Virus record (IMG/VR): IMGVR_UViG_3300017917_003339 | Location: 1 to 64,000 of that record | Source: a virus | Direction: 5' to 3' (one strand) | Length of the DNA stretch: 64,000 nucleotides | Part shown: piece by piece, positions 3,744 to 62,836 of the stretch | How the letters are laid out: each line of letters begins with the position of its first letter | Numbering within the stretch: the first letter of the stretch is position 1 | Program-made: the position numbers and the translations under genes | Notes under the pieces: generated by a model | What the model saw: the letters and a program-made list of their open reading frames with translations, nothing else | Databases searched by the model: none | What the model was told of the DNA's origin: nothing

Positions 3744-3820
3744 GATTGTTGTTTAATAATAAATATATAAACAACGTCTAAACTAGTATTTTTTTTATGT
3801 TAATTTTGTAGAATTTTTTG

Positions 3821-3915
3821 TGGCTAGGGCAGGGCTCGAACCTGCGACCTCTCTTTGCTTTTAACAATGTTATTACGTCTAATAACGAGCGCTCTACCAA
3901 CTGAGCTACCTAGCC
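3821..3915 (-). ncRNA. tRNA-like RNA with a branched, anticodon-less arm
   Basis: GGCTAGG/CCTAGCC acceptor, canonical D and T arms; anticodon arm replaced by two hairpins (GTTATTA-GACG-TAATAAC and TTG..CAA). Confidence 0.75.
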
Positions 3916-7046: not shown

Positions 7047-9026
7047 TTAAAGATTGATTAAAGATAAATTTATGTTCTTTTTTTCAATGTCTACACTAGA
7101 TACAATTACATGAACCATATCACCAAGTCTAATTTTGTGACCTGTGTTGTAACCCTTGATACAATGGTTATTCACATCAGCTTGATACGTATCCCCTTGT
7201 ACCTCAGACAACTTGATAAGTCCCTCACACTTGTTTTCAAGTATCTCAACAAAGATACCGTACTCAGTAACCGAACTCACGATTCCCTTGAATACTTTGC
7301 CAATGTTATCATTCATGTAAACACATTGCATGAATTTGATTGAATCTCTTTCAGCCTTTTGAGCCTTTTGTTCTCTGGCCGACAAGTGTTGACACTTGGT
7401 TTCAAGCTTCTCAATCTTTGGCAGCGTTGGTTTGTTTTCCAAATACAAACTAAGCAATCTGTGAACGATTACGTCTGGATAACGTCTGATTGGACTGGTA
7501 AAGTGGCTGTAGTCTTTGAATCCAAGACCGTAGTGACCAATGTTCTTTGTAGAATAGTTGGCTTTCTGCATGGTTCTTACAACCAAGTTGTTAATCATGT
7601 CTTCCTCAGCAGTTCCTCTTACATCAATCAATAACTGATTAAGAGACCTTGTGGTTTCCTCTGGTGTGTCTATGCGTATGTCATATCCAAACTGTGAAAT
7701 AAACTCTTTTAAAGAGGCTAATTTTACTTCGTTTGGTTTGTCATGGGCTCTGTTTACGTTAGGCAACCCTCGGCTGTTTATGTATTGGGCAACGTGTCTG
7801 TTTGCCAACAACATAAATTCCTCAATCAACTTGTTTGAGTCTTTGGCAACCTTGAAGTGAATACCAATTGGCTTGTTGTTTTCATCCAACTTGAACTTAA
7901 CCTCTTGCTTGTCAAAGGAAATTGAACCTCTCTTTGAACGAGTCTTACGCATTCTCTGAGCTATCTTATTTAACAGTCTAACAGCATCAAACATTTTCTT
8001 TACTTCCGTAGCATATCTCATACTACTATCAATATTCATGTTTTTTATAAATTCAAAATCAGATATGTCAGTTTCCCATTTACCTTCCGATTCAATAATT
8101 GTTTGCGCTTCTTCGTATGTAAGTCTACAATCAGAGTTTATTACAGTTCTACCGAACCATTCTTCCAACACATGACCGTTTTGGTCAATCTTAAACACCG
8201 CTGAGAAACACAACTTGTCCTCGTTAGGTCTAAGACTACACAATCCATTAGACAAGTTCTCAGGAAGCATTGGAACACATCTGTCAACTAGATACACACT
8301 GGTACCTCTGGCAAACGCTTCTTTATCCAACTGTGTATCTGGTCGCAAGTAATGTGATACGTCAGCAATGTGAACACCAACATACAATTCACCGTCAACC
8401 CATTCAACACTCAACGCGTCATCAAAGTCTTTAGCATCCGCTGGGTCAATGGTAAACGTCAATACGTTACGCATATCTCTGCGCTTGTCAATCTCAGCTT
8501 GTGTGATTTCTGTTGGGATTGCTCTAGCCTCAGCCAATACTTCTTCATCAAAGTCGTATGGCAACCCATATTCTTCAAGAATACTGTGGATTTCAGTTTC
8601 GTGTTCACCAGCTTCACCCAACACCTTAACAACTTCACCGTTAGGGTTCTTGGCATCATCTTTCCATTCAGTAAGTCTAACCACAACCTTTTGCCCATCC
8701 TCAGCGTTATTAATCGCGTTTAATGGAATATAAAAGTCAACTGGTAGTTTGTTACTATCAGGGATAAAAAATGCGAATTTGGGACTTATTTGAAGCGTAC
8801 CCACAAACTCTGTTCTGAATCGTTCAACGATTTCAATTACTTCACCTTCCATTGCACGACCAACACCTTCTTTCACACGGATTTTAACTTTATCCAAGTG
8901 CAATGCTTTGTTGGTGTTAGACTTGTGAATGTAGATGTCTTTTGGTAGGTTTGGGTCAGTCAAGTATGCTGAACCACTGGCGTTTACACTAATTCTTCCT
9001 TCTAAAATATCTCCTATGTTAATCAT
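7047..9026 (-). CDS. rnr: Ribonuclease R (RNB family)
   Basis: TIDPADAKDFDDALS, HIADVSHY, IEEFMLLAN, HFTSPIRRYPD, C-terminal S1 domain. Confidence 0.95.
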   Translation of the reverse strand: MINIGDILEGRISVNASGSAYLTDPNLPKDIYIHKSNTNKALHLDKVKIRVKEGVGRAMEGEVIEIVERFRTEFVGTLQISPKFAFFIPDSNKLPVDFYIPLNAINNAEDGQKVVVRLTEWKDDAKNPNGEVVKVLGEAGEHETEIHSILEEYGLPYDFDEEVLAEARAIPTEITQAEIDKRRDMRNVLTFTIDPADAKDFDDALSVEWVDGELYVGVHIADVSHYLRPDTQLDKEAFARGTSVYLVDRCVPMLPENLSNGLCSLRPNEDKLCFSAVFKIDQNGHVLEEWFGRTVINSDCRLTYEEAQTIIESEGKWETDISDFEFIKNMNIDSSMRYATEVKKMFDAVRLLNKIAQRMRKTRSKRGSISFDKQEVKFKLDENNKPIGIHFKVAKDSNKLIEEFMLLANRHVAQYINSRGLPNVNRAHDKPNEVKLASLKEFISQFGYDIRIDTPEETTRSLNQLLIDVRGTAEEDMINNLVVRTMQKANYSTKNIGHYGLGFKDYSHFTSPIRRYPDVIVHRLLSLYLENKPTLPKIEKLETKCQHLSAREQKAQKAERDSIKFMQCVYMNDNIGKVFKGIVSSVTEYGIFVEILENKCEGLIKLSEVQGDTYQADVNNHCIKGYNTGHKIRLGDMVHVIVSSVDIEKKNINLSLINL

Positions 9027-40191: not shown

Positions 40192-40316
40192 TGGAGGGGG
40201 CGGGAATCGAACCACGCGTTTTTCAAATTTACAGTTTGCTTGATAATAAATTTATTTGCTGCAAACATTCTTTAACAGAAGCAGAATGTGTGTTTAACCA
40301 ACATTTCAACCCCTCC
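40192..40316 (-). ncRNA. tRNA-Tyr(GTA)-like RNA with helix+CAGCAA insertion
   Basis: GGAGGGG/CCCCTCC acceptor, T arm, CAAA-CTGTAAA-TTTG; insert ACATTCT..AGAATGT-TTGCAGCAA. Confidence 0.7.
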
Positions 40317-40325
40317 TTGTTTTAG

Positions 40326-40438
40326 AGCCTAGCAGAGGACTCGAACCTCTCCTTATTCACCTAACGCAGCTTGTACAATGCCACTTGGTTCTCTTTCTGC
40401 TGGGATTTGCAGCGTGCTCCCTGATACACTAACTAGGC
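40326..40438 (-). ncRNA. tRNA-like RNA (Thr-type body) with expanded central region containing CCCAGCAG
   Basis: GCCTAGT/GCTAGGC acceptor, D arm GTGT/GCAC, T arm AGAGG-TTCGAGT-CCTCT. Confidence 0.6.
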
Positions 40439-40456
40439 AAATTCATGAAGCTTTTT

Positions 40457-43527: not shown

Positions 43528-43589
43528 CAGGGTGGTGTATCGGTTTCAAATTAAAAGTTTGATGATAATGATTGCTGAAACCACCCTTT
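43528..43589 (-). ncRNA. Helix+CAGCAA RNA presenting an isolated Lys(TTT) anticodon stem-loop
   Basis: AGGGTGGT-TTCAGCAA...TCAAA-CTTTTAA-TTTGA...ACCACCCT-G. Confidence 0.7.
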
Positions 43590-44684: not shown

Positions 44685-44758
44685 TACCCCCGAAGGGACT
44701 CGAACCCATGACCCCCCGCTTAAAAGGCGGGTGCTCTAACCAACTGAGCTACGAAGGC
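44685..44758 (-). tRNA. tRNA-Lys(TTT)
   Basis: CCCGC-CTTTTAA-GCGGG. Confidence 0.9.
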
Positions 44759-44763
44759 ATTTG

Positions 44764-44836
44764 TTCCCCCGACGGGCCTCGAACCCGCTACCCACTGGTT
44801 AAAAGCCAGTTGCCCGTCCACATGAGCTTCGAAGGA
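44764..44836 (-). tRNA. tRNA-Lys(TTT)
   Basis: ACTGG-CTTTTAA-CCAGT. Confidence 0.88.
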
Positions 44837-53034: not shown

Positions 53035-53119
53035 TACAAGGAGCAGGACTCGAACCTGCGACCCTTCGGTCTGGGATTTCTCCCTCGCCAACCGCTCTAA
53101 CCAACTGAGCTACCCCCGT
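53035..53119 (-). ncRNA. tRNA-like RNA with anticodon replaced by GGGA-GAAA-TCCC tetraloop stem
   Basis: Canonical D and T arms; extended arm TTGG-CGA-GGGA-GAAA-TCCC-AGA-CCGA. Confidence 0.75.
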
Positions 53120-53120
53120 A

Positions 53121-53276
53121 TATAGGCAACAAGATTAACTTTTTAATACGCGCTCTAAACCAACTGAGCTACCACCCGAAATCTTTAATCTAGTTGGGTG
53201 GGAAGGACTCGAACCTCCGACCTCGTGCTTAAGAGGCTATTGATTTAAATTGCTGAAATAATCTTTTATACCTATT
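53121..53276 (-). ncRNA. Circularly permuted tRNA-Lys(CTT) enclosed by helix+CAGCAA module
   Basis: 3' half (53194-53237) is transcribed before 5' half (53148-53178); joining CGT|GC gives CGTGC-CTCTTAA-GCACG. Confidence 0.8.
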
Positions 53277-53278
53277 TT

Positions 53279-53458
53279 TTAAGCCTTAACTTTGGCTTTT
53301 AAAATGTCAATCTGTTTGTTGATGCGTTGTCTATCCGCATCGGTCAAAGCAACCTTTACGTCACTTGTACCCTTTTGGGTTTTTACACCACTTTTAAGTT
53401 GCGCCTCAAATTGCGCTAATGCTCTAGCTTGTCTAGATTTTTGTGCTAATGTAGCCAT
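53279..53458 (-). CDS. Small basic hypothetical protein (59 aa)
   Basis: MATLAQKSRQARALAQFEAQLKSGVKT... Confidence 0.6.
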   Translation of the reverse strand: MATLAQKSRQARALAQFEAQLKSGVKTQKGTSDVKVALTDADRQRINKQIDILKAKVKA

Positions 53459-53479
53459 ATTTAAAAATTAATAATTTAG

Positions 53480-53556
53480 TCGAGGAGAAGGGACTCGAAC
53501 CCTTCAGCAACTAGTATACACCCCGCAATGAGGCTGCCGCACCAATACCATCCCCG
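53480..53556 (-). ncRNA. tRNA-like RNA lacking D stem, with G3.U70 and A73
   Basis: CGGGGA/TCCTCG-A acceptor, AAGGG-TTCGAGT-CCCTT T arm, GGCAGC/GTTGCT helix. Confidence 0.55.
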
Positions 53557-53729
53557 TGTTTTGGTGCTAACTTTCCCACGATAGCACCGTTGCAGTCTTT
53601 TCTTTGGGAGAGGGTCCGAACTGCAAACCCAGAAGTTGTAGCACTTCCTCAGCTGTTACGCTCATTTCCTTTTAACACCTTCCATGGTATGTTAAAATTC
53701 TTTACGTAAGTGTAACCGTCTTACTGTAG

Positions 53730-54030: not shown

Positions 54031-54107
54031 TGGGGGAAGCTGGACTCGAACCAGCGACCTTTCGCTCTCCTAAGACAGCGAACATCTGCCAACTGAAATA
54101 TTCCCCC
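54031..54107 (-). ncRNA. tRNA-like RNA with enlarged anticodon arm
   Basis: GGGGGAA/TTCCCCC; TTCGCT-GTCTTAGGAG-AGCGAA. Confidence 0.65.
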
Positions 54108-59731: not shown

Positions 59732-59735
59732 TGTG

Positions 59736-59856
59736 CGGACGCAGTGGGACTCGAACCCACAGCTTTTTCGTGACAGGAAAATTAACTAATGCTGCTGGAG
59801 ATAACCTTGTCAGGTTATGACTTGTTTTTAACATGTTACCCTTACACCATACGTCC
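59736..59856 (-). ncRNA. tRNA-Asp(GTC) with ~50-nt helix+CAGCAG insertion before the anticodon stem
   Basis: GGACGTA/TGCGTCC-G73; TTTTC-CTGTCAC-GAAAA; insert ATAACCT-GACA-AGGTTAT-CTCCAGCAG. Confidence 0.8.
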
Positions 59857-62747: not shown

Positions 62748-62836
62748 CAAGATAGTTAATTTTGTGGATTTGAACCACTTCGTTCGCATTTTAAGTGTGA
62801 ATTTTTAACCAATTTTGTTTGCTGAAACTATCTTTT
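62748..62836 (-). ncRNA. Helix+CAGCAA RNA with Leu(TAA) anticodon hairpin and T arm but no acceptor stem
   Basis: AAGATAGTT-TCAGCAA..TTCACA-CTTAAAA-TGCGAA..GTGG-TTCAAAT-CCAC..AACTATCTT-G. Confidence 0.72.

Follow-up and report, generated by a model that had tools for sequence, protein, structure and literature searches.

The window analyzed here is the first 64 kb of a 92,494-bp virus record from IMG/VR (IMGVR_UViG_3300017917_003339; CheckV completeness 26%), and coordinates refer to the window unless the record is named. On its minus strand, at positions 53275-53122, the window carries an RNA element in which the 3' half of a tRNA precedes the 5' half, both being enclosed between the arms of a short helix with an adjoining CAGCAA single strand, referred to here as the handle. 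In the reading that we favor, with a probability of roughly 60%, the element is a non-decoding, tRNA-shaped RNA of the Y type, the halves of which are not re-joined, and the handle is the putative docking site of a Ro60-shaped ring protein with DUF2828 and DUF7788 domains. The element belongs to a family of handle RNAs with covarying helices, the family is linked in virus genomes to a gene for a DUF2828 protein, and the structural model of this protein has the fold of Ro60. The Ro60/Y RNA particle, a lupus autoantigen the function of which is partly understood, is conserved from bacteria to humans. The element falls within an apparently large, undescribed phage branch of the Ro60/Y-RNA system, with a divergent protein of predicted Ro60 fold (DUF2828) and several partner RNAs per genome, which carry interchangeable tRNA parts on one handle.

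Anatomy of the element

A preliminary description of the locus had proposed a circularly permuted tRNA-Lys(CTT), with the 3' half, a linker and the 5' half following each other inside a conserved helix. Every segment of this order was found where that description had placed it, on the minus strand. From the 5' to the 3' end of the transcript, the features are as follows.

53269-53275, minus strand: 5' strand (7 nt) of the outer (terminal) helix, pairing with 53122-53128 in the minimum-energy fold
53266-53268, minus strand: 3-nt bulge after the 5' strand of the outer helix
53259-53265, minus strand: 5' arm of the handle helix, AAGAUUA (family rule A-R-G-N4); 7/7 pairs covary in alignment A2
53250-53258, minus strand: conserved single strand UUUCAGCAA, directly 3' of the handle 5' arm
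53238-53249, minus strand: A/U-rich 12-nt spacer from the handle to the tRNA body, unpaired in the consensus structure
53224-53237, minus strand: anticodon part, with tRNA positions 30-31 (GC), the 7-nt loop CUCUUAA (CUU) and positions 39-43
53202-53223, minus strand: variable region (5 nt) and T arm
53194-53201, minus strand: acceptor 3' strand (7 nt) and the A at the discriminator position; the acceptor pairs covary in relatives
53179-53193, minus strand: 15-nt linker closing the acceptor stem
53148-53178, minus strand: tRNA 5' half, positions 1-29, with the acceptor 5' strand, D arm, G26 and positions 27-29 (CGU)
53138-53147, minus strand: A-rich 10-nt linker from position 29 to the handle, A-rich in most relatives
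53131-53137, minus strand: 3' arm of the handle helix, UAAUCUU (family rule N4-C-Y-U), followed by the conserved G at 53130 and then U
53122-53128, minus strand: 3' strand of the outer helix in the minimum-energy fold

The tRNA 3' half, positions 30 to 73, occupies 53237-53194 (minus strand). Folded in its native order (163 nt), the RNA reaches -43 kcal/mol (z -3.6), a value attained by 0 of 200 shuffles, and its minimum-energy structure contains both the outer and the handle helix as well as the T arm and the acceptor stem. Outer helices of other sequence are present at the equivalent place in relatives. A candidate pairing of CAGCAA with UUGUUG after the 3' arm was dropped, as the complement is not conserved in the other copies.

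A family of handle RNAs

The helix and CAGCAA had been put forward in the preliminary description as one conserved module, and this was borne out both in the window, where the module recurs twice with different complementary arms, and in IMG/VR. At least 5 small RNA genes of the window share the handle, namely the element and the following 4 (R1 being the covariance model introduced below).

43529-43587, minus strand: second handle RNA, the same module with different arms around a bare anticodon-type stem-loop (UUU)
62749-62834, minus strand: third handle RNA, the same module around an anticodon-type hairpin (UAA) and a T arm
40196-40316, minus strand: tRNA-shaped RNA in normal order; the handle forms a hairpin branch that separates the D arm from the anticodon arm and has UUGCAGCAA after it; 39.5 bits with R1
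59735-59855, minus strand: tRNA-shaped RNA in normal order; its handle hairpin precedes CAGCAG, a variant of the motif, and its loop contains GUC

The arms at 43529-43587 and 62749-62834 differ from those of the element yet are complementary, and the 7-bp helix, UUUCAGCAA, the closing arm and the G are kept. In IMG/VR, a pattern consisting of UUUCAGCAA followed within 20-50 nt by the T-loop consensus occurs at no fewer than 120 loci, and the family counts given here rest on the matches listed. A perfect 7-bp complement with the following G was present within 260 nt in 73 of the 100 distinct matches listed, as opposed to 3-9 of 100 in a shifted-arm control, in which the 7-mer was taken 10-30 nt further upstream. 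All arms conform to A-R-G-N4 / N4-C-Y-U and are elsewhere freely variable, and the family rule derived from these data is a 7-bp helix of this form with CAGCAA 2-4 nt past the 5' arm and a G after the 3' arm. The element follows the rule, with 53259-53265 pairing with 53131-53137, UUUCAGCAA at 53250-53258 and the G at 53130.

When 19 members were aligned with MAFFT, RNAalifold derived a consensus structure of 29 pairs; compensatory double changes are seen in 25 of these, among them the 7 pairs of the handle, the outer helix and the acceptor pairs linking one half to the other. The preliminary description had made the permuted arrangement depend on covariation of the 2 halves in homologues, and the acceptor pairs of this alignment do covary. 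R1, the covariance model built from the 19 members, also found members in records that had not been picked by the motif; these carry CAGCAA (CAGCAG in one match) preceded by 2-4 variable bases, indicating that the conserved core is CAGCAA and does not include the 3 U's. The element itself scores 118 bits with R1, which is not independent evidence, because it was part of the training alignment. Its closest homologue (72% identity over 149 nt, 138.8 bits) is found at syntenic distance in a complete 362-kb phage record, hereafter the complete relative, one protein of which is 90% identical to the RNase R-like protein of the window. At the gathering threshold, Rfam models matched tRNAs only, in the window and in 10 related loci, and no literature on permuted tRNAs in phages was found. 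The family was found neither in Rfam nor in the literature searched.

Positions 39-117 of R1 also match ordinary junctions of tandem tRNA genes, both in control records and in the window (the tRNA-Lys pair at 44731-44808, minus strand, 46.5 bits), and such junctions are a source of false positives in searches for permuted tRNAs; a 35.7-bit R1 match in the control record G049 was rejected as a false match to tandem tRNAs. In the window, the RNA at 3820-3915 (minus strand), which ARAGORN calls tRNA-Ser(aga), has a normal-order body with 83% identity to the joined halves of the element and a 7-bp hairpin inserted at the same place, between positions 29 and 30; it has no CAGCAA, and its loop is not anticodon-like. 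The junction matches and this RNA imply that a permuted copy could derive from the stretch between the insertions of 2 tandem handle-bearing tRNA genes, which would leave a 3' half, a spacer and a 5' half between the halves of the handle, and normal-order tRNA-shaped RNAs with an inserted handle hairpin are indeed present in the same window. We nonetheless judge it quite improbable that the element is a functionless by-product of such a junction. This would explain the origin of the permuted copies and not their persistence: dozens of diverged copies keep every helix by compensatory changes, and the D- and T-loop nucleotides of the tRNA tertiary contacts are retained in them, which would be unexpected for decaying remnants. 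The substitution pattern suggests that purifying selection on the permuted copies is already visible.

The joined tRNA body and its variation

When the halves are joined in silico between positions 29 and 30 (53178-53148 + 53237-53194), they form a 75-nt cloverleaf identified by ARAGORN as tRNA-Lys(ctt), with the perfect 5-bp anticodon stem and the Lys CTT loop that had been predicted from the letters; the 7-nt loop contains U33 and A37, and the acceptor stem has a C1.A72 mismatch. No tRNA was called by ARAGORN in the native order. The anticodon had been noted as otherwise missing from the window, and we could extend this to the entire 92-kb record, none of the 47 ARAGORN tRNA genes of which is a further Lys(CTT) gene. 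The preliminary description left 2 readings, a spliced permuted tRNA and a Y-RNA-like mimic that keeps an anticodon. The latter gained support from the YrlA layout described in the last section and from the handle family being tied to the gene of a Ro60-shaped protein, whereas the former was undermined by the absence of splicing signals and enzymes, a moving opening point, acceptor loops of 4-8 nt and drift of the anticodon triplet.

Circularly permuted tRNA genes occur in Cyanidioschyzon merolae, other algae and some archaea. Their paired flanks form a bulge-helix-bulge, on which maturation depends together with a splicing endonuclease and a ligase, and the RNA is circular at an intermediate stage. 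If the element were a true circularly permuted tRNA-Lys(CUU) gene, the handle would pair the ends, cuts by positions 29 and 30 would be ligated, and RNase P and a 3' nuclease would open the acceptor linker to yield a decoding tRNA. The canonical cloverleaf with its Lys-type CUU loop and A73 is compatible with such a gene, as are the lack of a second Lys(CUU) gene in the record and a 15-nt linker long enough for end processing. Among the enzymes that had been suggested as telling, an RNA ligase of the Rnl type is encoded in the record (PF09414, 350-codon frame; record positions 72564-73151, minus strand, outside the window), with a counterpart in the complete relative, whereas RtcB was not found in the 92-kb record or in the complete relative. 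Inspection of sequence and fold revealed no bulge-helix-bulge at the joining site and no 3-4-3 motif, and the strands leaving positions 29 and 30 (10 and 21 nt) are mostly unpaired and A/U-rich. A splicing endonuclease (PF01974) was found neither in the record nor in 4 complete genomes of the family. Furthermore, the missing CUU is no special gap, because the phage tRNA set uses U34 tRNAs alone for Lys, Glu and Gln, and the C1.A72 mismatch likewise speaks against a decoding product.

The variation of the enclosed module points in the same direction. We parsed 68 elements, 54 of which have a 5-bp composite anticodon stem with a 7-nt loop, compared with ~4 of 68 after shuffling; U33 is present in 57 and a purine at position 37 in 61 of the 68. 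The chain is opened at 26/27 (34 elements), 27/28 (6), 28/29 (20), 29/30 (the present element only), 30/31 (4) or 31/32 (3), and a lone change, at position 41 of the closest homologue, shifts the opening from 29/30 to 28/29. The loops closing the acceptor stem range from 4 to 64 nt across the family, and the closest homologue has a 5-nt loop, with GUU in place of CUU. In the largest subfamily, the triplet is GAA, GUA, GGA, GCA, ACG, AUG or UAG, while the anticodon stem and the frame of the loop remain constant; in the subfamily of the element, the loop displays CUU, UUU or GUU, and U35 U36 A37 A38 are invariant. In genuine permuted tRNA genes, the splice site would be expected to be fixed, the acceptor ends to be processable and the anticodon to match the body, and since none of the 3 was seen, the splicing reading is unsupported and, in our estimate, very improbable. 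The same fold also exists in RNAs that follow the normal tRNA order and bear the handle as a hairpin on the side, which indicates that what is conserved is a three-dimensional object, tRNA plus handle, rather than the position of the chain ends.

In a subfamily with AGGTTCT arms (L047, L067, L036 and ~30 other loci), the 5' flank UUGACCA is complementary to a conserved loop capping the acceptor stem, UUGGUCA, which suggests a pseudoknot that would lock the acceptor end.

Linkage to a protein of predicted Ro60 fold

A DUF2828 gene (product of ~470-530 aa) is present in 38 of the 42 large records (at least 80 kb) that bear the pattern and in 19 of the 20 of these that are at least 90% complete, compared with 5 of 25 large control records drawn with a plain tRNA pattern and 3 of the 13 complete ones (Fisher p 6e-9 for pattern-bearing against control records, which are not phylogenetically independent). 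Of the 26 helix-positive records with the gene, 20 have it at most 10 kb from the RNA (coordinates read by eye). The reverse test gave a consistent result: 4 of the 5 DUF2828-positive controls contain full-length R1 matches of 67-74 bits, whereas 0 of the 20 negatives exceeds 47 bits (p 4e-4). Clustering of the genes in 29 neighborhoods revealed no second protein family shared near DUF2828.

The DUF2828 protein comprises DUF2828 and DUF7788 domains and gives a weak vWA signal. Its AlphaFold model, based on an alignment of 18 sequences (pLDDT 84, pTM 0.86), has Ro60/TROVE proteins as its 12 best PDB matches, all over the full length (E 6e-10 to 8e-7, TM 0.46 to 0.60); they include the proteins of Xenopus, human, Deinococcus and a Thermus phage, with 9KOP and 9L5Y among the best. 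As modeled, the DUF2828 protein has the Ro60 fold. A PDB sequence search with the protein gave no match, the likeness to Ro60 coming from fold comparison alone, and we found no literature naming DUF2828 in connection with phages or RNA.

The same data bear on the alternative that the handle is a real RNA module with another role, such as a processing or stability signal of tRNA arrays or a dock for a host factor, and that the DUF2828 link reflects shared lineage. All copies lie inside tRNA arrays and abut tRNA genes, the DUF2828 gene is ~70 kb away from the RNAs in the lineage of the present phage, and the compared records are phylogenetically clustered, as this alternative would have it. It is unlikely, though, considering that the link holds in both directions and across greatly diverged partners, with DUF2828 proteins 31-46% identical to the reference and highly varied handle arms, that the gene is at most 10 kb away in the 20 records mentioned, that DUF2828 is the sole protein family common to the neighborhoods, and that its product is predicted to have the fold of a ring known to bind RNA stems.

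Proposed role of the handle RNAs

We infer that the RNA would be cut out of the transcript of the tRNA array and that its ends would pair to form the outer helix and the handle, that is, a terminal helix, a small bulge, the 7-bp helix and the CAGCAA single strand. The handle would clamp a complete tRNA fold in which the chain is opened in the anticodon stem (29/30) and not at the acceptor end. The Ro60-like ring may then bind the handle, with CAGCAA standing where the YrlA and phiLo RNAs have their CGAA motif (PMC4201824, PMC12135203), and the halves would stay unjoined. The tRNA body, including its anticodon-type loop, would be displayed and could recruit or distract enzymes that recognize tRNAs, as YrlA does for bacterial Ro60.

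Several points weigh against this reading. The anticodon-type loops, with U33, R37 and UUAA at positions 35-38, are kept, which a Y-RNA role alone does not explain; the long, unstructured 15-nt acceptor linker and A73 would suit processing to a tRNA-Lys; and the gene for the Rnl-type ligase resides in the same record. The records compared are not independent, several being close relatives, and part of the DUF2828 association could therefore reflect shared ancestry. Finally, neither DUF2828 nor TROVE (PF05731), the Ro60 domain that the preliminary description had considered worth seeking, was detected in the 92 kb of the record. The absence of TROVE, RtcB and DUF2828 is uninformative, because the record is 26% complete. 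The complete relative has an intact 495-codon DUF2828 frame, and synteny would place the gene ~32 kb past the point at which the present record stops; the unsampled part of this genome thus probably encodes the partner.

The retained anticodon-type loops suggest that the displayed loop matters. In the window, the exposed loops are of the Lys (CUU, UUU), Leu (UAA), Asp (GUC) and Tyr (GUA) types. A tentative possibility is that the Ro60-like ring and the constant handle form a modular display system, presenting either an entire tRNA body or just an anticodon stem-loop, in which the exposed loops serve as bait (decoys, sensors or repair guides) against host anticodon nucleases in phage defense. 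Such a role would explain why RNAs that cannot be ordinary tRNAs retain U33, R37 and A38, and why U35 U36 A37 A38 are invariant in the subfamily of the element while position 34 changes. Since the element displays an entire tRNA that includes an anticodon-type loop, the role of the tRNA-like module of bacterial Y RNAs can be addressed directly through this family. The family also has consequences for annotation: tRNA finders miss permuted handle RNAs and mistake normal-order ones for tRNAs that have unusual introns or extended variable arms.

Neighboring RNAs and gene content

The element is closely packed between its neighbors: a 59-codon open reading frame (ORF; 53279-53458, minus strand), rich in Lys, Ala and Gln, ends 3 nt before it, and the next tRNA-shaped RNA begins at 53119, 2 nt past it. 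Other tRNA-like RNAs of the window, and a non-coding stretch with tRNA-like parts, are the following.

53035-53119, minus strand: tRNA-shaped RNA in which a longer stem with a GAAA tetraloop replaces the anticodon arm, leaving no anticodon; Rfam tRNA 42 bits, no ARAGORN call
40330-40450, minus strand: tRNA-like RNA with an 8-nt anticodon loop and a ~45-nt variable region; no ARAGORN call
53470-53728, minus strand: ~260 nt of non-coding sequence between tRNA-Phe and a small ORF, ending in a good T arm and acceptor 3' strand, with a possible 5' acceptor partner ~170 nt upstream; a 14.6-bit partial tmRNA match is the sole Rfam signal
54031-54107, minus strand: tRNA-like RNA with an 11-nt anticodon loop; ARAGORN 'tRNA-???' with a two-base anticodon

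All genes of the window and its 33 tRNA-model matches are on the minus strand. The phage is AT-rich (GC ~36%), and the record encodes an RNase R-like exonuclease, NAMPT, a GluRS-like protein and homing-endonuclease-like proteins, a gene content that is the profile of a very large phage. A blastn search of phage GenBank with the 3-kb surroundings of the element returned tRNA matches only. The exonuclease gene (7047-9026, minus strand) is of the RNase R/RNase II type, with an RNB domain, 2 cold-shock domains and S1. By analogy with Ro60-Y RNA-PNPase, its product was considered as a partner nuclease and rejected: RNB domains occur in just 4 of the 67 large phage records examined, all 4 from the lineage of the window, which implies that an RNase R-like nuclease is not a general part of the handle-RNA system.

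Comparison with known systems

The element shares with the permuted tRNA genes of algae and archaea the order of 3' half, linker and 5' half, the pairing flanks and the canonical cloverleaf on joining, and differs from them in having no bulge-helix-bulge or detected splicing endonuclease and in belonging to a family with no fixed opening point.

The closest known RNA is YrlA (RF02553; Chen et al. 2014, PMC4201824), which is bound by Ro60/Rsr and occurs in bacteria and mycobacteriophages. The Rfam model aligns with the element over its full length (53120-53246, minus strand; E 2e-5), but its score of 34.7 bits is half of the Rfam threshold (gathering score 69), and at that threshold YrlA has no match in the window or in 10 related loci. 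Of the suspected YrlA relationship, the layout stood and membership did not, the element falling outside YrlA as Rfam defines that family. Both RNAs have a terminal stem formed by their paired ends, an inner module running from the T arm through a loop-closed acceptor-like stem to the D arm, and a conserved single-strand motif on the 5' strand just inside the stem; like YrlA, the handle-RNA family occurs in genomes that encode a Ro60-shaped ring protein, in the present phage probably in the unsampled part. The motif of YrlA, GNCGAAN0-1G, is its supposed Ro60/Rsr contact (PMC4201824). In the 5' part of the element, neither G.CGAA nor CGAA is present, and CAGCAA, after the 7-bp A-R-G-N4 helix, occupies the equivalent place. 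YrlA has no anticodon arm, whereas the element keeps a full one, the loop of which is of the anticodon type; the protein linked to the handle RNAs has DUF2828 + DUF7788 and not Pfam TROVE; and handle RNAs come several per genome, scattered in tRNA arrays, also in normal tRNA order and with the handle around bare stem-loops. The shared order of arms and the full-length alignment might be taken to mean that the element is simply a YrlA, with a canonical Ro60 (TROVE) from either the phage or its host as the protein that binds it. Given the low score, the missing GNCGAA motif and the absence of TROVE (PF05731) from the record and from all 42 pattern-bearing records, we regard this as exceedingly improbable.

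Among phages, a close parallel to the favored Y-type reading is Thermus phage phiLo, which, like the DUF2828-bearing genomes described here, encodes a protein of the Ro60 fold together with partner RNAs, Yrl1 and Yrl2 (PMC12135203; PDB 9KOP, 9L5Y). The phiLo protein has been recognized as homologous to Ro60, and the phiLo RNAs have their CGAA motif within a stem-bulge-stem and are not described as having a tRNA body; in the literature found on phage Ro60, Y RNAs of the CGAA type alone are described. The metazoan Y RNAs bound by Ro60 (PDB 1YVP) have neither sequence similarity to the element nor a tRNA body, but they are built on the same plan, with a bulged terminal stem as the protein site and a variable module beyond an internal loop.
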